DNA of 13,942 bases from Candidatus Bathyarchaeota archaeon (GTDB lineage: Archaea > Thermoproteota > Bathyarchaeia > Bathyarchaeales > Bathycorpusculaceae). The notes beneath the pieces were generated by a model. That model searched no databases and was not told the DNA's origin. It worked only from the letters and a program-made list of their open reading frames with translations. The position numbers and the translations under genes were made by a program. The stretch's first letter is position 1. Every line of letters starts with the position of its first letter. Positions 1 through 10,224 of this stretch are shown here, piece after piece. The DNA is taken from NCBI GenBank assembly GCA_963777155.1, contig CAVZPM010000016.1:1-13942 (forward strand), written 5' to 3'.

Positions 1-36
1 CAAGATTCTTGAATCAAGTTCACTTATTTTGGGCAA
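1..36 (-). CDS. 5' end of a probable Lrp/AsnC-family HTH regulator (partial, runs off the left edge; not in the ORF track)
   Basis: Minus strand reads TTG CCC AAA ATA AGT GAA CTT GAT TCA AGA ATC TTG = MPKISELDSRIL. This matches the Lrp N-terminal 'IDEIDAKIL' motif of the neighbouring paralogues. A purine-rich GGAGAAAAGGGA lies upstream. The frame is also open to an alternative TTG at 114. Confidence 0.6.
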   Translation of the reverse strand, partial: MPKISELDSRIL

Positions 37-173
37 ATTTTTTCCCTTTTCTCCGACGTTTTTTAGGTATTCGAATCTCTGATTTCTTTTCTTTCTCTTG
101 ATTATTTCAGTCAAAATTTCCGATGGTTATTGGATTATGTCGAAATTGAATGATTTGCCTTTTAACAAGTTCG

Positions 174-1187
174 TTAAAAGGTTGATATATATTGGCGTGG
201 GCTTGGCCATTTCTTCCATTCTTCGTTTATTCTTGAAATTTCCTGTTCAATTTTTCTTATTCCTGAAATTTTTCCAATCTGTTCTTGAATGTTAAGCAGT
301 TGACCTATGTCCTGAACCATTGCATATATTTGTAGGTCACAGTCTCCAGATGTCTTCATAATGCTTATGATATTGGGTATTCTGCTGACTTTTTCAACAA
401 TCAAATTTGGCTTTTCATTGGAAATAGTAGCGAAAAAAATACACATCGCTTGGTATCCGATTCTACTAAGATTAATTTGAATTGTTACTTTTAATGCGCC
501 TTTTTTCTTCAGCTTTTCATATCTTCTTTTTGCTGTGTCAGGTGAAATTCCTATTTCTTTAGCCAGAACATCCATTTGGATTCGACCGTTCTCAGCCAGT
601 GTATCTGCTATTTTTTGATCGATTTCATCAATAATTACAGTTTGAGTGTCTTTTTCATTTTTCTTAATTTCATGATTCTCCTTTATTGTGTCTTTCAGAT
701 CTTGGGTGACAAATGCTAGATTCTGGTTCATTTCTTTTACATCTGTCCAGATCGCTGTTTTCATTTCCAAAACTGGAAAATTATTTTTTATCGAATCCTT
801 AACCATGTTCAGCTGCTCAAGCGTTTTAAGGATCACTACTACGTCCACAGTTCCTTTTACTTCCTTATTGAAGGCAGAATAAACCTCTGGCTTTTTTTGT
901 AAGTACTCGACGAGTTTGTCTGCTTGCTGGGCGTCCATGTAGATTAACATGTGTGCAACTGCTTTGTAACCAAAACTTTTGTAGTTAATGTGAATCGTAG
1001 CGCCAGTAATAACTCCAGTTGCTTCCAATTGGCGATAATTTTTATTAACAACTTTTTTAGTTAGGCCTAGTTTTTTTGCAATCTCTGTTTCAGTTTTGCG
1101 TCCATCCTCTATTAATTCTTTAAGAATTTTTGCTTGGACTTTTGTAACTTGCTCAGTTAAGATTGATACCCCTTGTTGAACATTCAC
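174..1187 (-). CDS. Lrp/AsnC-family transcriptional regulator with two fused HTH+RAM units
   Basis: Unit 1: QAKILKELIEDGRKTETEIAKKLGL...INYKSFGY. Unit 2: IDEIDQKIADTLAENGRIQMDVLAKEIGISPDTAKRRYEKL...INLSRIGY...TSGDCDL. At 337 aa it is about twice the length of a normal Lrp. Confidence 0.93.
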   Translation of the reverse strand: MNVQQGVSILTEQVTKVQAKILKELIEDGRKTETEIAKKLGLTKKVVNKNYRQLEATGVITGATIHINYKSFGYKAVAHMLIYMDAQQADKLVEYLQKKPEVYSAFNKEVKGTVDVVVILKTLEQLNMVKDSIKNNFPVLEMKTAIWTDVKEMNQNLAFVTQDLKDTIKENHEIKKNEKDTQTVIIDEIDQKIADTLAENGRIQMDVLAKEIGISPDTAKRRYEKLKKKGALKVTIQINLSRIGYQAMCIFFATISNEKPNLIVEKVSRIPNIISIMKTSGDCDLQIYAMVQDIGQLLNIQEQIGKISGIRKIEQEISRINEEWKKWPSPRQYISTF

Positions 1188-1270
1188 GAAGGTTTTTTAT
1201 CATAATTAATATTGTGGTGTATTTAGTCTTTTACATAGGCTGTTTCATGTCAGGAATCTTAAATTAACAA

Positions 1271-1311
1271 GATAATATTGCCATTTGACAAACTAAAAAG
1301 GCAATATTATC
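1271..1311. promoter_or_regulatory. Perfect 12-bp inverted repeat, candidate Lrp operator
   Basis: GATAATATTGCC (1271-1282) and GGCAATATTATC (1300-1311) with a 17-bp spacer. It lies between the divergent lrp start and the TATA box at 1338. Confidence 0.7.
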
Positions 1312-1330
1312 GATTAAATCCAAGTTTTTT

Positions 1331-1345
1331 ATAAAGTTTTATATA
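1331..1345 (+). promoter_or_regulatory. BRE/TATA promoter (ATAAAGT-TTTATATA), predicted TSS about 1370
   Basis: Consensus archaeal TATA box TTTATATA at 1338-1345, preceded by an A-rich BRE-like run. No protein-coding start follows for about 300 nt. Confidence 0.65.
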
Positions 1346-1369
1346 CGAAGGAAGCGCTCGATTCTTTTC

Positions 1370-1530
1370 GTTAGAAAGAGAAAGAAAAGTGTTGCAATAG
1401 GTGGAGATGTGGGGCTGAGTAGGCTTTAGTAACTATTAACGAAATAGCCAATAGTTAAAAGAAGAGCTTTGCATTTGCTCTTTTTCTCCTTAAACCAGAG
1501 CCTCAGCAAACCCTAACATTTCTAAACATT
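1370..1530 (+). ncRNA. Candidate structured small RNA: long closing stem enclosing two hairpins; putative antisense regulator
   Basis: Outer stem pairs 1402-1430 with 1494-1524 (UGGAGAUGU/ACAUUUCUA, GGG/CCC, GCUGAG/CUCAGC, GCUUU/AGAGC). Hairpin A is AACUAUU/AAUAGUU (1431-1456). Hairpin B is AAGAGC/GCUCUU (1462-1482). It lies downstream of a TATA box. The ends are approximate. Confidence 0.6.
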
Positions 1531-1621
1531 CGGCGGGCGTCTTATTTGCCAAAAAGGTAATGCTTCAATGTAAACCCAACCCTATGAGAATCGCTCGTTT
1601 CGTCGATTATGTTGGCGCTAC

Positions 1622-1635
1622 AAAAATGATATATG
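1622..1635 (+). promoter_or_regulatory. Possible weak BRE/TATA for a near-leaderless MFS transcript
   Basis: AAAAAT-GATATATG ends about 25 nt before the ATG at 1661. Confidence 0.3.
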
Positions 1636-1660
1636 CATCTGAGGGAACTACAAGGAATTC

Positions 1661-2888
1661 ATGAACAGGCAACCTAACGGGGTTAATGAACGACTTAGGA
1701 CCTTGTTGTTGCCTACTTTAGTATTATGCACTTTCGTTGGATTTACGATAACCGCTTTTGTTAGCACGCTCCTTGTGGATCTTGCAGAATCTTTTAAGGT
1801 TTCAATCGGAACAGCGAGTGAACTTGTACTGATTAGTAGTCTCACAGGGCTAATCGTGGGAGTGGTTATGAGTGCAATTTCCATTAAATTCAAACATAGG
1901 TCTCTATTTCTCGTCGGAATGTCAGTTTTTACGATTGGTACATTTGGTTTCTTCTTGGCACAGACCTTTATCGACTTGTTTTTAGCCAATTTCTGGTTGC
2001 AGCTGGCTCTACAATTATCTCAATCATGACTTACGCCTTGATTGGGGATCAGTTTCCATTGAAGAAAAGAGGCTGGGCTATCGGTCTGCTCGTTTCAGGC
2101 GGAATGGCTGCGTTCATTATTGTTGCACCCTTGTCAGGGCTGATTGCAGGCTTAGCAGGGTGGCGGTCGAGTGCTCTCCTGGTTCATAATACCCGCTTCA
2201 TTAGTTTGCGTGGCTCTGAGTTTAATTTGTATTCCTTCGAATCAGCCTAAATTAGACCCTTCAAGCCAATCTCTCTATTTGCAAGCATACAAACGCATTT
2301 TTCTTTGCAAATCAACAGTTGCTTGTCTCATAGGTACAACGCTTGTTTCGTTCATAAGTGTCGTTCCTATGTACGCTGTATCCTTTTACAGAACTGCTGA
2401 GTCTGTTTCCCCGATTGTGGGCGGAGTTTTTTCTTCAATCGCTGGTGTGGGAGCGGTTGTCGGGGGGATAGTTGGAGGAAAATTAGTTAATAGGTTTGGC
2501 AGAAAGTCACTAGCTGTTATATTTTACTTCGTTTCAGGCGTAACTGTGCATTCTTTTTACTTTCATTCCAATAATTGGTGTTTCGGTGGCTATATGGGCT
2601 CTGGCAGCTGCCACGGGAACCTTGGGAATGGCTGGTCTAACCAGCTTAACGCTGGAACAGGTTCCAACATTTAGGGCATCGATGATGTCGATTAGCGGAT
2701 CCTTCCAAAATGTAGGAATGGCTTTAGGGGCAATTATTGGCGGATTAGTGCTAAATTACTTTCATAACAACTTTCAACTTCTAATGACTGTTCTCGGGTC
2801 ACTTGGAGCTTCCGCCGCCATAGTGCTCTTTCTTTTCACAAATGACCCATACACAGACGGGTCTCCGAGCAAAAAACCCAAAGCCTGA
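1661..2888 (+). CDS. MFS transporter, split by three frameshifts (about 1992, 2170, 2550); sequencing error or pseudogene
   Basis: Four overlapping ORFs join into a hydrophobic protein of about 408 aa with MFS motifs: SIKFKHRSL, LIGDQFPLKKRGWAIG, GWRSV, GGKLVNRFGRK, EQVPTFRASMMS...GMALGAIIGG. Confidence 0.85.
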
Positions 2889-2976
2889 TTCATAATAATT
2901 TGTTGAAATTACCCTGTGAATTTGGGCTCGGATTTTTATTTGTGTACTCGCTATTTAGTGAAGGACTGATGCCTGC

Positions 2977-3410
2977 TTGGCTGAACAAGAACTGAATTCA
3001 ACGTTGTTCCACACTTATGTGTTTCTTGTAAAGACTGGGAAACCTGTTGGTCCCAGGGATTTGATGCGTGGAGCCAACCTGAGCAGTCCAAGCGTCGCCT
3101 ACCGTAACCTGCAGAGACTAATGGATTTGGGTTTAGTTGCCAAAGACGAGTACGGCAACTACATTGTTAAGAAAAAGGTCGCTATGAGTGGATATGTTTG
3201 GGTTGGAAAAACCCTCATCCCAAGCTTCGCCGTCTACGGCTTTATTTTTCTAGGCGTTTTAATCGCAGAAATTCTCGTATCTGATTCCCTCATATGCTAA
3301 AGGGTTCTGCCATAGAGGAGTCATTCTGGCTTTTAACGGTAGTTACTGTTGTTTCTGCAGCAGTTTTTCTGATTGAAGCATGGCGGTTTAGGAAAAAGTC
3401 AAAACATTAA
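2977..3410 (+). CDS. Winged-HTH protein with two C-terminal TM helices (membrane-anchored regulator-like), frameshifted near 3280-3290
   Basis: N-terminal GPRDLMRGANLSSPSVAYRNLQRLMDLGLVAKDEYGNY resembles a wHTH. TM1 is FAVYGFIFLGVLIAEILV. After the shift the sequence continues HMLKGSAIEESFWLLTVVTVVSAAVFLIEAWRFRKKSKH to a stop at 3410. Confidence 0.75.
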
Positions 3411-3440
3411 CTTACTCGCTTTTTTGTGGTTCAAAGCTAT

Positions 3441-4499
3441 TTATGGCCAATATTTGGGCGCGATAGCCTCGCTGTCGATTAGTGAAGGAAACAGGTTAAG
3501 AGGCCAAGCTGGTGGCAGCATAGTCAAATGGACCGTTATCGACTCTACTCCGGTTATTTTTCTGATTTTTATATTAGCATCAAACATCTGTTCAAAATCC
3601 TCAAGGACAAGTCCACAATACAAATCATAGCTGCCGATTAGCCTAATGATAACTATTAGGTTTGGGATTTCAAGTATTTGAGCGTAAATTTCATTCATTT
3701 TGCTACGGTTGGAGATTTTTAAGTACAGGTTTGCAAAAGCTTTGTATCCCAATTTGGAGAGGTCAACAGTTATGCTGGAAGAAGTGAACAAGTTATTTCT
3801 TAGTTTTTTGTACCTTTGAATTATAGTCTTACTTGAAACATTCAGTTCTGTGGCAATTTTTTTGAAGGGTGTGCGTGCATTTATGGAAAGGATTTTTGCA
3901 ATCTTTTTATCAATTTCGTCTAGCGCAATAACTGGTCGTTCTTGATGATTGTTTATCAAGACTTTTCTGTCTTGTCGGTTATTTTCCTTTAACGGTTTGA
4001 TGATTAAGTTTTCTGGGTATTCTATGTTTGCTGCCTTCGCCCAGATTAATGCATCTACATGTTTAATGCAACTGTTAGCTTCCATCTCCTCGATAATATC
4101 GTGCAACTTTTTGAGGTTTCGTATAGCTACTTTGCCAAGGAAGTTGTAATTGCCACATGGACCGACTAATCCAGCAATGTAAGGTTTGGTTTCGAGGAAT
4201 TTTGTTACTTCTTTGTCATCTTCAATCGCGTTCGTTATGCATAGATCAACAATGTGTTGGTATCCCAAGCAGTGAGGGTTAATGAGCATTACTTCGCCGT
4301 TTATTACGCCTTCTTTCCATAGCTGTTTGTAACGTATTCTAACAGCTGTGACGGTAATTTTGCAGGCGGCAGCGATATCGGTGAAACTGGTGCGGGATTC
4401 CAATAAGAGTATCTTCAGTATTTTTGCATCAATTTCATCGATTTTCACTTTAGTTGCCAAAGTTACCTTGACCTCTACAAAACTTGGAATCTTAACCAT
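3441..4499 (-). CDS. Lrp/AsnC-family regulator with two fused HTH+RAM units (true start may be TTG at 4460)
   Basis: Unit 1: IDEIDAKILKILLLESRTSFTDIAAAC...INPHCLGY. Unit 2: LDEIDKKIAKILSINARTPFKKIATELNVS...VDLSKLGY...IGSYDL. An SD-like GAGGT precedes TTG 4460. Confidence 0.93.
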   Translation of the reverse strand: MVKIPSFVEVKVTLATKVKIDEIDAKILKILLLESRTSFTDIAAACKITVTAVRIRYKQLWKEGVINGEVMLINPHCLGYQHIVDLCITNAIEDDKEVTKFLETKPYIAGLVGPCGNYNFLGKVAIRNLKKLHDIIEEMEANSCIKHVDALIWAKAANIEYPENLIIKPLKENNRQDRKVLINNHQERPVIALDEIDKKIAKILSINARTPFKKIATELNVSSKTIIQRYKKLRNNLFTSSSITVDLSKLGYKAFANLYLKISNRSKMNEIYAQILEIPNLIVIIRLIGSYDLYCGLVLEDFEQMFDANIKIRKITGVESITVHLTMLPPAWPLNLFPSLIDSEAIAPKYWP

Positions 4500-4704
4500 G
4501 CAAAACGTGATGCTTTATTTAAGATTTTTCAAATCTATTGAGAAAAATATGTTTAGTGTATCTCTGTATTTGTCTGTTTAAGGTCTATTATCTGAATAAT
4601 AAATAAAATAGTTTGTCCAATCTTCGTTCATTTTACAAATTCTGGCAACGGACTTTCCCTACAATGTTTTTTCTCGCAAATTCGATATGTGAGCAGTTGT
4701 TTTT

Positions 4705-6090
4705 CTATTTTCTCCTAAGTTTTAATTTTACATCTGAAATTAGGTTGGCAGCAAAAATCAACGCTGTAGATAACTTGAACCTTCTTTTCTTCTCAAAGAG
4801 AAATGCAGTGCGCAGGTAGTAATGGTGGAACGCACCTTCTCTTAGTTTACCCAGGTCTTTCATACTCAGCCACGGTGTCTCAAAGATTGGGTGGGTCGTG
4901 TCGTAGAGATCAAAGTCGGTTACTCTAAGCCATCCCTTCTCCTTAACCATGTCATACATAGGGGTTCCTGGAAACGGCGTTGCCACGTTGTAGAAGCCTA
5001 CATCATCGGGAGCGATTTTTTCTACAAACTTTATAGTTTTCCATGCACTCTTCTTTGTTTCGCCTGGGAAACCCAAAATTACGTTTGGAACAGGTTTTAA
5101 GCCGAGTTCTCGGACCCAACCGAGGACTTTAATGGTTAATTCGGGGCTGATTCCTTTTTTCATTGCATCTAAAACCTGCTGGGTTCCGGATTCAACTCCG
5201 AACCAAACGGTGATGCATCCAGCCTCCTTCATCTTCGCAAGCAGATCTTTAGTTATCATGTCGACACGTGTTCCACAGTTCCACTGAATCTTTAATCCGC
5301 GCTTTAGGATTTCGCTACAAAGCTCTTCAGTTCGGGGCTGGTCAACCGTGAAGGCGTCGTCACAGAAAGTAAACTTGCTAATACCATAGGTCTTGTTTAG
5401 AAACTCTAATTCGTCAACTACATTTTTTGGGCTTCGCATTCGGTATTTGCGTCCATGCATCCTAACGGTTGTGCAGAATTCGCACCAGTAAACGCATCCT
5501 CTGCTGGTTGCCAGGTAAAGTACGTCTTCGAGTTCACGGAACTTCTCCATAGGCCAAAGGTGACGAGCAGGAAAAGGTAGACTATCTAAGTCTTCAATGT
5601 ATGGTCTGTCGGGGTTTCTTGTGATTTTCCCGTCTTTTCGACAAGTGATACCCAAAACGTCATCGTAACTTTTTCCTGCCTCTATTCTCTGCACAAGCTC
5701 CAACATCGTGTTTTCACCTTCTCTTCTAACTACAACGTCAAGTTCTGGGCATTCTTCGAGGGCTTTGTCATCCCAAAACGTGACATGGGAGCCGCCGGCG
5801 ATGGTTATGCAGTTTGGGCAAGCTTGTTTTGCAATCTTTACCAGTTTAAGTCCCGACTGATAAGTGAGCGTAGAGGATGTGACTCCAACGATGTCTGGTT
5901 GACGCTTACTAATTTCGCTTCTAAACTCTTCAGGTGAGAGCTTTAGCACTTGGCAATCGATTACGTCAACTTTGTAGTTGTTTTTCTCTAAGACTGCCGC
6001 TAAGTATCCTAAGCCTAACAGTGCAAAGGGCATGTGCATTGCAGCGCCAACTGGAGCAGATGGGTTAACCAAAGTTACATGAGGCTTCAT
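4705..6090 (-). CDS. Cobalamin-binding-domain radical SAM protein (class B methyltransferase-like)
   Basis: N-terminal B12-binding domain (LGLGYLAAVL, PDIVGVTS, IAGGSHVT, VVRREGE, DLDSLPFPAR), then TSRGCVYWCEFC (CxxxCxxC), FCDDAFT, FGVESG, ILGFPGET, TPFPGTPMY. Confidence 0.93.
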   Translation of the reverse strand: MKPHVTLVNPSAPVGAAMHMPFALLGLGYLAAVLEKNNYKVDVIDCQVLKLSPEEFRSEISKRQPDIVGVTSSTLTYQSGLKLVKIAKQACPNCITIAGGSHVTFWDDKALEECPELDVVVRREGENTMLELVQRIEAGKSYDDVLGITCRKDGKITRNPDRPYIEDLDSLPFPARHLWPMEKFRELEDVLYLATSRGCVYWCEFCTTVRMHGRKYRMRSPKNVVDELEFLNKTYGISKFTFCDDAFTVDQPRTEELCSEILKRGLKIQWNCGTRVDMITKDLLAKMKEAGCITVWFGVESGTQQVLDAMKKGISPELTIKVLGWVRELGLKPVPNVILGFPGETKKSAWKTIKFVEKIAPDDVGFYNVATPFPGTPMYDMVKEKGWLRVTDFDLYDTTHPIFETPWLSMKDLGKLREGAFHHYYLRTAFLFEKKRRFKLSTALIFAANLISDVKLKLRRK

Positions 6091-6324
6091 TTTCTAGTCA
6101 CTATTTGTTGTTCAAAAAGAGACGCTTTATGCTTAAACATTTCGCCTAGATCGATAAAAAGCCAAAAGAGCAGAAGAAATCAAATTCAGAAAAACGTCAA
6201 CTTGAAAACACAAGGTGATGTAAATACTTCGTATTGGTCTACCAAAGTGAAACACTCAAACATCATTGTTTTAAGTTTAACAGCATAATTTCAGTCAATT
6301 TACAGCTGTCAAACTCATTTATTG

Positions 6325-6338
6325 GATAAATTTATAAA
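6325..6338 (+). promoter_or_regulatory. BRE/TATA promoter of the beta-propeller gene; SD AGGAG at 6364-6368
   Basis: GGATAAA-TTTATAAA with TATA at 6331-6338. Predicted TSS is about 6360 and the ATG is at 6380. Confidence 0.7.
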
Positions 6339-6379
6339 CAAAACAAATATTTCACTATAGGTTAGGAGAAATAAGAAAA

Positions 6380-9284
6380 ATGCAAAATAAAAATAAAACT
6401 TTAGCTATTTCTATCGCTTTGATCTTAGTAGTTTCAATGGCAACTTCAATAATGCTTGTACCAAACGCTGACGCACATACACCTGCATGGCAAATATTCC
6501 CACATACGCATACATTAATGCTAGCCCAAACCCAATAGGTGTCGGTCAGACAGCACACGTCTACATGTGGCTTGACGCTGTTTACGGCGTAGCAGGAGGA
6601 ACCACTGCATAGTTCGAACGAACGCCTCAACAGCCAGCGCAGGATTAACTTTCCAACATTTACAGATTCCACAACTACAAGCTCATTATTACGGCACCCG
6701 ATAATACAACTACAACACAGAATTTTGCCGATTATTTCTAGACACAACCTCAAGCCAATTACGTGAAATTCACACCTACACAGGTCGGCACATACAAGTT
6801 TGACTTTAGTTTCCCAGGCCAAGTATATGGAGCAAACGGTAATGGCTACGAGAAATCAGTGCTGATAGGCGACACATATCTTCCTAGCAGCGCATCCACA
6901 ACACTTGACGTACAAGCAAGATCCGATTCCCGAGTCCGATAAACAGCTATCCGCTTCCACAGCAGTATTGGGCACATCCAATCTACGGTGAAAACACTGA
7001 CTGGTGGAAGATATCGTCCGACTGGCTAGGTTCAGGTGCCCCAGTTCCAGCAGGCTACACTAGCTCAACATTATTCCATGGCGATGCTGTAGGACCTTTG
7101 ACTTCCCACGTGATGTGGACAAGACCGCTTCAATTTGGAGGAGTTGTCGGAGGGAGCAATTTCGCCGACGGCGGCTCATTTCCTGATGGAGCAGTTTATG
7201 GACCAGCTTACTGGGAGGGTTCTTCATACAGACCACGATTCGTTAATGGAATAGTGATGGACGGAATACTCTTCTATAAAGGTGTGATAGCAACTGGAGG
7301 AAGCACCACTGGACCAACCATCGCACTTGACCTTCGAACTGGAAAAGTTCTTTGGTCAAGAGACGATGTACCCCTACTTTCCTTCGGATACATATACAAC
7401 ATTTGGAACCCAGACCAACACGGAGTAATGGCACCAATACTTTTCACAAGCAACTTCGCCAGAGCCTTTGATGCATATACAGGAGTCCAATTGTTCAACG
7501 TTACCAACATGCCTACAGGAACATCCACCACAGTTGCGGGTCCAAGCGGTGAACAAATAAAGTACTTCTTCCAAAACGCGGGCACCAATGCAGCTCCACA
7601 ATGGTATCTTGCACAGTGGAACTCCTCCAGACTATGGATCCAAGATGTCAACCCATTCACAGGCGGCGGCAGTCTTAATGCGCCCTCAGTGCTTAACTGG
7701 ACAACCGCAATAAATGGCGTTCCAGTTGTTGGACCTTTACCCAGTAGCTCTATACAAACAACAGTTCCTGCATCGAGCAACCCCACCGACACTATAATTG
7801 TTAACGGAAACATTCCTTTGAATGCAACCACCAATGCACAGACTGGGGTCTACGCAATACCGATAACCACCTATGACTGGAACATTTCAGTGCCGTGGCT
7901 AAACACTATGCCTCTACAACCAACTTTCAACTCAGTTACAGGAAACTTTACAATGCCTGCAGCTGGAACAAACCCAGTGTCAATTCTTGCAGCTAACTTC
8001 GGAGATGCAATGCTCTGCAGAAACGGCTCCTTACCAGTAGGGTACAAAGGAACAAGCGCAGGCCAGCCACAACTGCCATGCACAATGTTCCTTGTTAACC
8101 TCAACGCTTCAAAAGGCGCAATCGGCTCAATACTTTGGATGCAGACTTATAACCCACCCGCAGGAAACCTCACTATGTCTTTCGGAGCAGTCGACTGGCA
8201 GACACGCGTTTTCACTTTCAATTACCAGGAAACACTCAATTGGGTAGGATACGATATGAACAACGGCAATTACCTATACACGACTCCACGTCAGAGTGAC
8301 TTTGACTACTATGGCGTCGGCAACACTATGGTCAGCGTACTTGCTTATGGCAACCTGTACACCAGTGGATTCTCAGGTGTATGCTATGCCTTTAACGATA
8401 GAACTGGAGAATTACTATGGACTTACGGCAACGGTGGAGAAGGCAACTCCACTAACGGTGGCTTGCAGATATTTTACGGCGTCTACCCGACATTCATTCA
8501 ATCGATTGCCAACGGAGTAATTTACTTATCGACAAACGAACACACAATTCCCAACCCAATGTACAAGGGCTCTACATATCGCGCTATTAACGCAACCGAT
8601 GGAACAGAAATATGGCAGCTTTCAGGTTACCCCAGCGAGTGGTCTACTCCTGGTTCAGCATGGTATACAGCAGATGGCTTTTTAGCATGCATGAACGGCC
8701 TTGACAACAACATCTACAGCATCGGCAGAGGACCAAGCGCTTTAACAGTTTCAGCTCCGAACTTAGCAGCAGCATCTGGACAACCAGTTATTATCAGCGG
8801 TACAGTAGTGGATATTTCCGCAGGTACTAAACAGGACGAGCAAGCAGCACGCTTTGCGAATGGTGTTCCATGCGCATCTGATGCCAGCATGAAAGACTGG
8901 ATGGGCTATGTCTACCAACAGAAACCACTGCCAACCAACTTCACAGGTGTTGACGTAACAATCAACGTGGTGGACGCAAACGGAAACTTTCGAAGCATCG
9001 GCACAGCAACAACTGACTACACAGGCGCATACAATTTAGTATGGCAACCAGACATTCCAGGCACATACAACGTCATCGCAACATTTGCAGGCACCAACGG
9101 TTACTGGCCATCATCTGCAACTGCCGCATTCAACGTAATGGAAGAACATCCAACAACAGCACCAACACCGACTGCAGCACCATCAATGGCTGACCAGTAC
9201 TTTATTCCAGCAATAGCAGGGCTATTTGTCTTCGTAGCTATAATCGGCGTTGTAATCATCCTGGTCCTCAGGAAACGACCATAA
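6380..9284 (+). CDS. Secreted, membrane-anchored PQQ-like beta-propeller surface glycoprotein (about 965 aa); several frameshifts in about 6495-6945
   Basis: Signal peptide MQNKNKTLAISIALILVVSMATSIMLVPNADA/HTPAWQI. Shifted-frame segments PTYAYINASPNPIGVGQ, YRFHNYKLIITAPD, FTPTQVGTYKFDFSFPGQ and YPLPQQYWAHPIYGEN lead into ORF 7098-9284. PQQ-type blades: ALDLRTGKVLW, AFNDRTGELLW, AINATDGTEIW. An Ig-like C-domain, a Thr/Pro linker, a TM helix and RKRP end the protein. Confidence 0.88.
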
Positions 9285-9291
9285 ACAAACC

Positions 9292-9336
9292 AAGTGGACA
9301 AACCACTTCCCTCTTTATTTTTTTGTTTTTAATTTT
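9292..9336 (+). terminator. Hairpin plus U-rich terminator of the beta-propeller gene
   Basis: AAGTGG-acaaa-CCACTT (9292-9308) is followed by CTCTTTATTTTTTTGTTTTT, just after the stop at 9284. Confidence 0.7.
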
Positions 9337-9349
9337 AACACTATTTTTT

Positions 9350-9362
9350 CAAACTTTATATT
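9350..9362 (+). promoter_or_regulatory. BRE/TATA promoter of the methyltransferase gene
   Basis: CAAAC-TTTATATT lies about 50 nt upstream of ATG 9412. An SD-like GGCGGT precedes the start. Confidence 0.5.
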
Positions 9363-9411
9363 AATCCCAAAACCAACAATACCTCACTCATACCTCAGCC
9401 TGGGCGGTCGA

Positions 9412-10224
9412 ATGCTCAAAGACAACAATTTCAAAGAACAAATTCACGAAGCCAACGTTATAGTTCATCGCTTTGAAGCACCATACTACGAACTGCTCCA
9501 CCCAGAAGTCTACAGCAGACACGAACAAAAAAGAATAATCGCCAAACTAAAAAAAATCGACCAGCAAATCGCCGATAACCAAAAGATCGCTCTTGACGTA
9601 GGTGCAGGAACAGGTAACCTAACAGGCAAACTCTTGCAGATGGACTATAACGTAGTGGCAACCGATATTTCACCTGAAATGTGTGGGATTCTCAAAAAGA
9701 AATTCGCTGGTTATTTGCCTGATAAACTAACTGTAATTAACTCGGCCGTGGAAGATCTAAGTTTTAGCCAGGGTAAGTTTGATTTAATAACCTTCTACTC
9801 AGTGCTCCATCATCTGCCTGACTATCCTTCTGCTCTTCGCACAGTCTGTGGCTTTCTAAAGAAGGGTGGCGTAATGTATATCGACCATGAAGCATCCCCG
9901 TCCTACTGGAAAAGCGAACCCAGTGGTCTAGCTAGCTTGGTTAAAGGACTATACTTTCATTCAAACCCCGCAATCAACAGCCTTTACTTCCAACTCATAG
10001 GCTTAAAAGTTCCCACAATTGACTACACCCTGTCTGATTACTGGCACAAAAAAGAACATGCCCTAAGCCACCAAGCCATACTAGAAGTCTTCAAAAAGGA
10101 GGGGTTCGATTTCTCCAAACGAACAGACTATTATCAGCACGGAACCTGGATTCCGAATCCGCTGTTTCCGTTTTACAGTCTTCTTTGTCAGCCAGAAATG
10201 AGTTATTGGATAGCAAAAAAATAG
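9412..10224 (+). CDS. Class I SAM-dependent methyltransferase
   Basis: Motif I ALDVGAGTG, then VVATDISPEM, FDLITFYSVLHH and LKKGGVMYI. Confidence 0.9.
   Translation: MLKDNNFKEQIHEANVIVHRFEAPYYELLHPEVYSRHEQKRIIAKLKKIDQQIADNQKIALDVGAGTGNLTGKLLQMDYNVVATDISPEMCGILKKKFAGYLPDKLTVINSAVEDLSFSQGKFDLITFYSVLHHLPDYPSALRTVCGFLKKGGVMYIDHEASPSYWKSEPSGLASLVKGLYFHSNPAINSLYFQLIGLKVPTIDYTLSDYWHKKEHALSHQAILEVFKKEGFDFSKRTDYYQHGTWIPNPLFPFYSLLCQPEMSYWIAKK

Follow-up and report, generated by a model that had tools for sequence, protein, structure and literature searches.

The window analysed here, the whole 13,942-base contig CAVZPM010000016.1 from a 2.29 Mb bathyarchaeal genome of 39 contigs, carries at positions 1397 to 1527 of its plus strand one copy of a conserved, structured, multi-copy element of peat-soil archaea that belong to an order-level group. 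Across its copies, this repeat unit of about 130 nucleotides (nt) presents three blocks, unpaired and in collinear order, which are antisense to the Shine-Dalgarno sequence (SD), to the start and second codon, and to codons about 8 to 11 of a family of surface-protein genes, one of which begins at position 6380 of the window. On balance, we favour the reading that the window copy specifies an anti-start-site RNA for the whole surface-gene family; such an RNA would probably damp the family's translation.

The window copy is a full-length member of a structured repeat family

We built a covariance model, R1, from 80 copies of the element. With cmsearch, the window copy matched model positions 1-130 at 96.9 bits (E = 1.7e-21), being itself one of the 80 sequences used to build R1, and a profile search with nhmmer returned it at E = 3.4e-28. 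In the minimum free energy fold, an outer helix joins 1403-1410 to 1516-1523. The 5' arm (1411-1429), supported by covariation counts in the sets of 80 and 24 sequences, provides the P0 strand GGG (1411-1413), the P1 strand GCUGA (1414-1418), a bulge (1419-1421) and the P2 strand (1422-1429), and is matched by a 3' arm (1495-1523) made up of P2 (1495-1502), P1 (1503-1507), an AAA segment, P0 (1511-1513) and the closing strand of the outer helix. Enclosed between the arms are hairpin A (1431-1456), whose loop exposes the block GAAAUAGC (1441-1448), hairpin B (1462-1482) with the loop UUUGCAUUU (1468-1476), and the single-stranded anti-SD block UUUCUCCU (1483-1490). An RNAfold prediction for 1365-1550 agrees with the fold put forward in an earlier, purely sequence-based description of this stretch (hereafter the original prediction), namely a long closing stem and two hairpins with the blocks placed in loops or in the junction. 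The predicted unpaired probability in the window copy is 1.0 for the core of loop B, 0.84 for the anti-SD block and 0.82 for the arm A block.

The same anatomy recurs throughout the family, with a closing helix (outer stem, P0, P1 and P2) that encloses two or three small hairpins. The common 5' arm, GGGGCUGAG-UA-GGCUCUGG, and the common 3' arm, CCAGAGCC-UCAGC-AAA-CCC, are the most conserved part and resemble terminal inverted repeats; between them lie a variable hairpin A, hairpin B with the loop UUUGCAUU, and the tail CUUUUCUCCU. Among 83 copies, the block motifs TTGCAT, CTCC and TAGCN (the last in hairpin A) occur in 62, 64 and 51, respectively. The 5' flank of the element (1397-1410 in the window, typically ...GCAAUGGAGAAAAGAAU) is a sense look-alike of the family SD-spacer-AUG, with the outer helix strand at 1403-1410 resembling the SD, and its letters would allow pairing to the 3' flank or the anti-SD tail.

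Searching the own genome with an nhmmer profile of eight full copies located 17 places at E <= 0.0013, and the segment 1330-1560 has further matches elsewhere in that genome. The copy on contig C22, an allele or recent duplicate, lies within a segment that is 95.9% identical to window positions 1-4879; the remaining own-genome copies are independent, with 73-86% identity. By BLAST, 18 of the 24 same-genus genomes contain the element, with up to 14 copies each. R1 found it in 13 of 151 sampled genomes of the class, representing 8 of 79 genera, and its matches extend to a second family, f7, where each genome has 16-18 copies. Partial, solo 3' arms occur behind unrelated genes, and tandem pairs or triples were seen at G013:C3:47900-48828, G168:C15:7260-7547, G086:C8:5016-5291, G187:C37:12595-12872 and G193:C1:4342-4640. 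The family-gene loci L082, L093, L072, L110 and L123, two of which have an element, come from records titled Methanocella, Acidoferrum, 'uncultured bacterium' and Gammaproteobacteria; they are probably mis-binned contigs rather than products of transfer.

For the structural comparison, 89 distinct full-length copies were available. The arm pattern served to anchor 83 of them, and the alignment comprised 80, leaving out the near-duplicates L002 and L163 (second copy) and the deleted copy L032:2252. In the 80 sequences, the share of paired cells in P0, P1, P2 and hairpin B is 91.3%, compared to 88.8 +/- 0.3 after column shuffling (reached by 0 of 500 shuffles), two-sided changes affect 13 of 21 pairs where 6.8 +/- 1.3 are expected, and slid controls pair in 26-53%. 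Because the arms are highly conserved, this set is limited in power. A set of 24 more distant copies from genera g16, g18 and g22, which were aligned to the model and are biased towards it accordingly, reached 88.6% pairing vs 80.4 +/- 0.9 and a covariation score of 0.231 vs 0.118 (0 of 500). Moreover, in alignment-free tests the 5' and 3' flanks of the 83 anchored copies pair better with their own partner than across copies (-4.73 vs -3.78 kcal/mol, permutation p = 2e-4), and the same preference for the own partner holds for the arms of hairpin B (p = 2e-4), both effects being modest. RNAalifold, applied to a raw MAFFT alignment of 10 copies in which the variable arms misalign, recovered only 7 pairs of P2. 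Covariation supports the helices. Averaged over copies, the unpaired probability is 0.73 for the anti-SD block, 0.65 for loop B and 0.51 for the arm A block, compared to 0.45 overall and 0.18 in the arms.

Rfam 15 gave no match in the window at the gathering score, and a permissive threshold over 1150-1700 yielded chance-level matches only (E 0.28-9). On 8 loci with typical copies, the sole Rfam match was an unrelated tRNA; a tRNA gene at L004 795-868, about 0.7 kb from a typical copy on contig C38, is likewise unrelated to the element. No tRNA was found in the window. The element is therefore as foreign to the RNA family database as had been supposed.

Most copies follow the stop codon of a surface-protein gene

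In the own genome, the element lies on the same strand as, and 52-63 nt past the stop codon of, large surface-protein paralogues that end in a membrane anchor and RKRP; it is present at 8 of 22 paralogue 3' ends. An independent set of 80 loci, picked solely because their products resemble the C-terminal 294 residues of the window's protein, has the element at 30 (25 of them above 20 bits), in all cases on the gene's strand and 43-81 nt after the stop. Counted from the element's side, 67 of 80 evaluable copies, a collection gathered partly through family genes, come after the C-terminal anchor, stop codon and T-run, and 13, including the window copy, do not. A location behind the stop codon on the gene's strand, as a cis-acting element of the 3' untranslated region (UTR) would have, thus applies to the family and not to the window copy, which has no gene ahead of it. 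The original prediction of a single small RNA (sRNA) stands for the folded element itself, which is however a multi-copy repeat that usually sits behind the stop codons of genes from its target family.

Every family gene 3' end has an A-rich stretch followed by a pyrimidine/T-run, a family-wide terminator signature. The element begins about 15-35 nt past this T-run, which precedes rather than follows typical copies. The surface gene of the window and its closest orthologues are without the element and end in a hairpin and T7; in the window gene (9285-9330) and its orthologues, the small hairpin AAGTGG...CCACTT stands ahead of the T-run. These element-free orthologues also have a different downstream gene, leaving no clean empty site for a mobility comparison. 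An 'insulator' function that would shield a downstream paralogue in read-through RNA found no support, as a family gene follows within about 1.5 kb at 4 of 23 loci with the element and at 7 of 51 without it.

The exposed blocks mirror the start regions of the gene family

The start region of the window's surface gene (6360-6411, plus strand) comprises the SD at 6364-6371, the AUG at 6380-6382 and codons 9-11 at 6404-6411. Loop B (UUUGCAUUU, 1468-1476) is complementary to AAAUGCAAA (6378-6386), which holds the AUG and second codon; the anti-SD block UUUCUCCU (1483-1490) is complementary to the SD AGGAGAAA (6364-6371), the spacer to the loop B block being 6 nt in both molecules; and GAAAUAGC (1441-1448) is complementary to GCUAUUUC (6404-6411), where signal-peptide codons 9-11 are encoded. 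These three blocks had been named in the original prediction, and they proved exact. A fourth pairing proposed there, AACC (1493-1496) with GGUU (6360-6363), is complementary as claimed, but 1495-1496 belong to the closing helix. To rank the pairing, we used a windowed duplex score with accessibility penalties, allowing up to three collinear sites and no linker penalty. The 6380 region came second of 1,401, with a sum of -14.7 kcal/mol over the three predicted sites, and 0 of 200 dinucleotide shuffles of the element equalled the three-site energy, placing the complementarity beyond chance. By local alignment, the reverse complement of the element likewise ranked the 6380 region second in a comparison with 2,244 other start regions.

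The genome contains a set of about 17-20 similar family start regions, to which 6360-6411 belongs. The paralogues share AGGAGAAA, an A-rich spacer of 5-8 nt and ATG, often followed by CAA-AAA, and many continue with ...ATGGCTATT... a few codons downstream. Correspondingly, the element consensus in reverse complement reads SD-spacer-ATG-CAA, and the family's signal-peptide codons are complementary to AAAUAGCCAUAG, the conserved motif of arm A. The spacing between CTCC and TTGCAT, with a mode of 9-10, overlaps the SD-to-start spacing of 8-13 in the genes. From these letters, the interior of the element looks like an inverted copy of a family gene 5' end. Aligned in reverse complement, the window copy scores a mean of 23.8 against 17 family starts and 14.6 +/- 2.5 against the 2,244 others (Mann-Whitney p = 2.5e-10), with family starts at ranks 1, 1, 1, 2, 4, 8, 10, 10 and so on, whereas the sense-strand control (p = 0.05) had no such family enrichment. 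All 10 own-genome copies tested were significant, C39, C33 and C37_57k being weaker (p = 1e-4 to 5e-6). The energy version of the test put family starts at ranks 1, 1, 1, 2, 2, 3, 13 and onwards of 1,401 (p = 2e-10). With family start regions filling the top ranks genome-wide, the suggestion that the antisense match may extend to paralogues is borne out. The proposed antisense match to the SD and AUG of the surface gene also holds, but as complementarity to a family consensus and not to the gene at 6380 in particular.

Between genera, the blocks change together with the start regions. Genus g16 is represented by two genomes and 12 element-bearing genes; its family start is GAAGG(U/A)(G/A)AAAAA-AUG-AAAAAA, and the element reads ...UUUUUUCAUUUUUUCAUCCCUUC where genus g1 has UUUGCAUUU...CUUUUCUCC; the g16 loop-to-tail segment, ...GGUUUUUUCAUUUUUUCAUCCCUUC, is in reverse complement the g16 family start region. 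Elements of g1 score 21.4 against g1 starts and 16.9 against g16 starts, those of g16 score 26.2 against g16 and 22.1 against g1, and those of g22 score 22.0 against g22 and 15.8 against g16; sense controls fell at 15-20. Over g1, g16 and g22, the antisense score within lineages exceeds that between lineages by 2.26 (label permutation p = 0.0005, a value that kinship makes generous). The start regions of g18 are heterogeneous: one g18 element mirrors a TTG-start variant of the same genome, and gene-linked g18 elements mirror a start of the ...AAAGGAGAAAAGAAGAAUGG type. A three-way match at the base after the start codon (C in g1, A in g16, G in g18) was tried and dropped, the six g18 start regions being mixed. 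The homologues collected thus show both signs that the original prediction had named as checks, stems that covary and loop blocks that vary together with family start regions between genera.

The window copy resembles a stand-alone unit with a family-type promoter

Window positions 1188-1396 align with the intergenic region between regulator and family gene in relatives, including its promoter and 5' UTR. The TATA-like box at 1333-1345 (plus strand) corresponds in the alignment to AAAGTTTTAAATA, a box conserved at a distance of about 50 nt ahead of the family-gene ATG in 8 relatives, so that the TATA box reported at 1338 is by homology part of a family-type promoter. It is followed at 1373-1391 (plus strand) by a purine-rich relic of 5' UTR, SD and start that ends in GTG and aligns with the relatives' ...AAAGGAGAAAAAGAAAAATG. 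After the relic, the relatives enter the coding region and the window enters a pre-element spacer and the element. Since the window lines up first with the family promoter and then with the element, the arrangement is a promoter-element fusion from which the coding region was lost. As judged by this layout, the window copy looks like a stand-alone sRNA gene.

The junction of promoter and element is also present in a second own-genome copy, C30; BLAST did not find this junction type in 40 genus genomes. Genus g18 has a stand-alone unit of its own, in which the element is combined with a copy of a duplicated family promoter, an SD/ATG relic and a T7 run, and which lies directly upstream of a family gene that holds the second promoter copy. 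This design recurs in a sister species. The g18 unit possesses both promoter and terminator, and the window copy has its promoter by homology. Intrinsic-terminator-like sites (GC-rich stem plus U-run) numbered zero in 1200-1700, and a scan for bacterial-type promoters and terminators, which models no archaeal promoters, gave nothing above shuffles. P2 of the window copy contains an A-C mismatch (GGCUUUAG) that is absent from the C22 copy, to which it is 94% identical.

The promoter facing the element has a divergent neighbour, the gene of an Lrp/AsnC-type regulator with two helix-turn-helix (HTH) domains (174-1187, minus strand; Pfam HTH_24, HTH_AsnC-type and AsnC_trans_reg). Of 40 genus genomes, 21 have an orthologue of this regulator, placed next to and divergent from a family surface gene behind which the element lies. 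Between regulator and family gene, the spacers of relatives retain a perfect 12-nt inverted repeat that the window has at 1271-1282 and 1300-1311, with 17 nt in between; this site (1271-1311) is likely the operator of the family-type promoter, where the regulator would bind. A second double-HTH paralogue of the Lrp/AsnC type lies at 3441-4499 on the minus strand of the window, and similar regulators adjoin family surface genes at C37:56265-57245 and C9:161360-162361.

Surface gene, contig quality and RNA contigs

The surface gene of the window (6380-9284, plus strand) encodes a PQQ-like beta-propeller/Ig-like protein with a signal peptide and a C-terminal anchor. Its reading frame is open for 52 codons from 6380, changes between 6538 and 6909, and then continues as an open frame of 791 codons that carries the PQQ-like propeller and Ig-like domains. 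A gene for a transporter of the major facilitator superfamily (MFS; 1661-2888) is split into three frames, and is intact with 410 codons in the 96%-identical C22 segment. The frame breaks in both genes reflect either indel errors of the contig or decaying copies. Window positions 1-4879 have their 95.9%-identical twin at the end of C22 (G000:C22:30618-35487) and an 87.7% relative at the start of C28 (G000:C28:2-1308), and C28 breaks just ahead of promoter and element. The likeness to C22 and C28 points to a strain variant or a duplication, together with repeat-driven assembly breaks.

Six RNA runs contain 5-13% of the words of window positions 1-10000. RNA contigs from four wetland metatranscriptomes span 6511-9300 and are 90-99% alike to the window, from which they differ by seven 1-nt indels at 6607-6934, at the site of the frame break. 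The cover ends near the T-run at 9311-9344, coinciding with a skipped repeat, and leaves 1396-1860 and 9301-9765 uncovered, which is evidence neither for nor against transcription there.

Discussion

We favour the antisense RNA reading because it is the most economical explanation of the element's anatomy, position, exposed blocks, family-specific complementarity and co-variation between lineages. According to this model, a plus-strand RNA of the element would pair with the start regions of family mRNAs and cover the SD and AUG, and mRNAs covered in this way would initiate translation less often. The window copy would necessarily act in trans, and gene-linked copies could act in cis, in trans or both. 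Transcription of the element, the plus strand as the RNA strand, the pairing inside cells and the direction of the effect are all features that we infer. A more far-reaching version, which we offer as tentative, is that an RNA module born from an inverted target start region controls about 20 highly expressed paralogues, such that one paralogue or stand-alone unit throttles translation of the others. In this version the module, linked to a third of the genes and also expressed from duplicated family promoters, would continue to co-evolve with the SD and AUG of its targets.

Several observations weigh against the antisense reading. Elements match the start region of their own gene no better than those of other genes (21.28 vs 21.37, p = 0.56, 32 pairs) and thus give no gene-specific signal. 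For this cis comparison, we took 40 loci, set aside 6 without a long open reading frame (ORF) ahead, 1 without a usable start, and L132, L143, L150, L158 and L160 with implausible or shortened starts, and joined the resulting 28 with 4 own-genome pairs. Given an interior that resembles an inverted 5' end, the similarity to start regions could also persist by descent or gene conversion. The element is found at only about a third of family genes, a terminator-like T-run separates it from the stop codon in the gene-linked copies, and neither a T run of at least 5 nor a terminator-like site was found behind the window copy. On its own, the sequence of the window copy folds in an ordinary manner (-47.9 kcal/mol, z = -1.44, equalled by 13 of 200 shuffles), and wobble pairs over all helices name no strand (G:U 63 vs A:C 56). 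When the predicted interaction was compared with controls, the three-site energy stood out from the shuffles, but the best single pairing site alone was equalled by 14 of 200, and plain whole-element RNAduplex placed the 6380 region only at rank 211 of 2,245. GC-rich targets win in that plain ranking, which is uninformative without accessibility. The background of the energy tests consists of the first 1,400 of the 2,244 start regions in contig order, and the approximately 2,258 start regions of the genome were themselves defined by a simple ORF rule, a crude caller. Lastly, no transcript of the element was seen in the RNA data, which consist of assembled contigs only and as such do not reveal a small RNA with its ends and strand, and two genes on the contig that surrounds the window copy are frame-broken.

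The main rival explanation is a structured 3'-end or mobile repeat of the REP/BIME or MITE type (see below). It would stabilise or terminate the upstream mRNA, or just spread, with no antisense regulation; its likeness to start regions would be the mark of an origin from an inverted 5' end, refreshed by gene conversion. Multiple copies, arms that look like terminal inverted repeats and are the best conserved part, the tandem arrays and the solo 3' arms behind unrelated genes all fit such a repeat, as do an interior that is collinear with SD, ATG and signal-peptide codons like an inverted homologue, the absence of cis covariation in the 32 pairs and the strand-neutral wobble counts. We nevertheless regard this explanation as unlikely: 67 of the 80 copies occupy one fixed place behind one gene family instead of being scattered, conservation and exposure persist in the blocks matching SD and AUG, with covariation in the intervening stems, these blocks changed jointly with the start region in another genus, stand-alone copies have a family promoter, and the window copy is without the GC-rich hairpin and U-run of a terminator. 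Somewhat more credible, although still doubtful, is that the family is functional and the window copy a dead deletion remnant of promoter, start relic and element, which would be compatible with the antisense reading of the family. The coding region that relatives possess is gone between 1391 and 1397, the MFS and surface genes on the same contig are frame-broken, the P2 mismatch is not shared by the C22 copy, and the junction type is confined to the own genome in the BLAST search of the genus. Against a remnant, the window copy is full length at 96.9 bits and has three intact and exposed blocks. The junction is common to the C30 copy, and the arrangement has therefore been kept and duplicated, and genus g18 has the same promoter and element design, complete with a terminator.

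Two further explanations seem far less probable. A role at the DNA level, as a recombination partner for gene inversion (phase variation) or as a second binding site of the Lrp-type regulator, would make use of the imperfect inverted repeats that flank the gene, with the start region at the 5' side and its mirror image in the element; the Lrp-type regulators beside many family genes and the strand left unsettled by the wobble counts would suit it as well. Such a role is very improbable, since the repeats are not most alike within a locus, helices without any part in these models are maintained by compensatory changes, and stand-alone copies have no gene to invert; neither a recombinase nor a variant in the opposite orientation came to light, although no search was aimed at them. 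The least plausible proposal reads the element on the minus strand as SD and ATG of a small protein gene or of a decoy start site. Most copies do show AGGAG, a spacer and ATG on that strand, but the frame extends over 12 codons in the window and, by eye, over 6, 17 and more than 27 elsewhere with frame-changing indels, and no ORF of at least 30 codons overlaps 1346-1560. A minus-strand small ORF was rejected on account of these short frames of differing length among copies.

The element is a conserved candidate for a structured RNA whose targets are predicted with unusual explicitness, and, if transcribed, it is of high interest for archaeal RNA biology. It also accounts for assembly breaks and 'orphan' intergenic repeats in these genomes. 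Should it be transcribed, it would be one of the rare archaeal sRNAs whose target, mechanism and evolutionary origin are all apparent from sequence, and a case of RNA control of a surface-protein paralogue family from 3' ends or from duplicated promoters; annotators would gain a new RNA family with about 10-18 copies per genome that is now missed. If the control of the whole family were true, it would amount to RNA-based dosage control or mutual exclusion of surface variants, and would parallel, in a prokaryote, the way in which microRNA genes arise from their targets.

Comparison with known systems

Bathyarchaeia are abundant and uncultured, and our literature search, by title or abstract, found nothing relevant on small or non-coding RNA in Bathyarchaeota/Bathyarchaeia. 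Repetitive extragenic palindromic sequences and bacterial interspersed mosaic elements (REP/BIME), like repeats of the miniature inverted-repeat transposable element (MITE) type, are short and multi-copy, have palindromic arms, and often lie behind genes, sometimes in tandem. Unlike these, the present element is tied to one gene family at a fixed distance, and its interior matches and co-varies with the start region. Some plant microRNA genes were born from inverted duplications of their target genes. The apparent derivation of the element's interior from an inverted copy of target sequence is reminiscent of this process, which however belongs to another domain of life and another machinery, and the part derived here is the translation start region.

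A 3' UTR anti-SD motif that pairs with the mRNA's own 5' UTR is described for icaR of Staphylococcus aureus (PMC3868564). Gene-linked copies of the element share with this icaR motif a same-strand sequence past the stop codon that is complementary to the SD region of the preceding gene. They differ in being a folded module of about 130 nt that stands behind roughly one third of the paralogues, some 20 in number, recurs across genera, covers SD, AUG and early codons, and also occurs in stand-alone, promoter-linked units; a T-run moreover lies between gene and element, and there is no own-gene preference (21.28 vs 21.37). Among archaeal sRNAs, Methanosarcina mazei sRNA154 (through its loop 2) and sRNA41 mask ribosome binding sites (RBSs) via loops (PMC5867862). 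They resemble the element as structured intergenic RNAs with an anti-RBS sequence in a loop and several related targets proposed; they are single-copy genes with experimental support, whereas the element is multi-copy, linked to its presumed targets and predicted from sequence in a lineage without cultures. The review PMC9438474 deals with bacterial sRNAs that stem from the 3' ends of mRNAs; these show the same placement of a regulatory RNA at the 3' end of a protein gene, in the same orientation, but they usually regulate other genes, whereas the predicted targets of the element are the host gene's own family. The element is akin to an anti-RBS sRNA or to a 3'-UTR anti-SD element, yet is a member of no described family. 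It is set apart by being linked in many copies to a single paralogue family, by mirroring the start region in three blocks, by its apparent derivation from the 5' end of its targets, and by stand-alone units in which the family promoter is reused.

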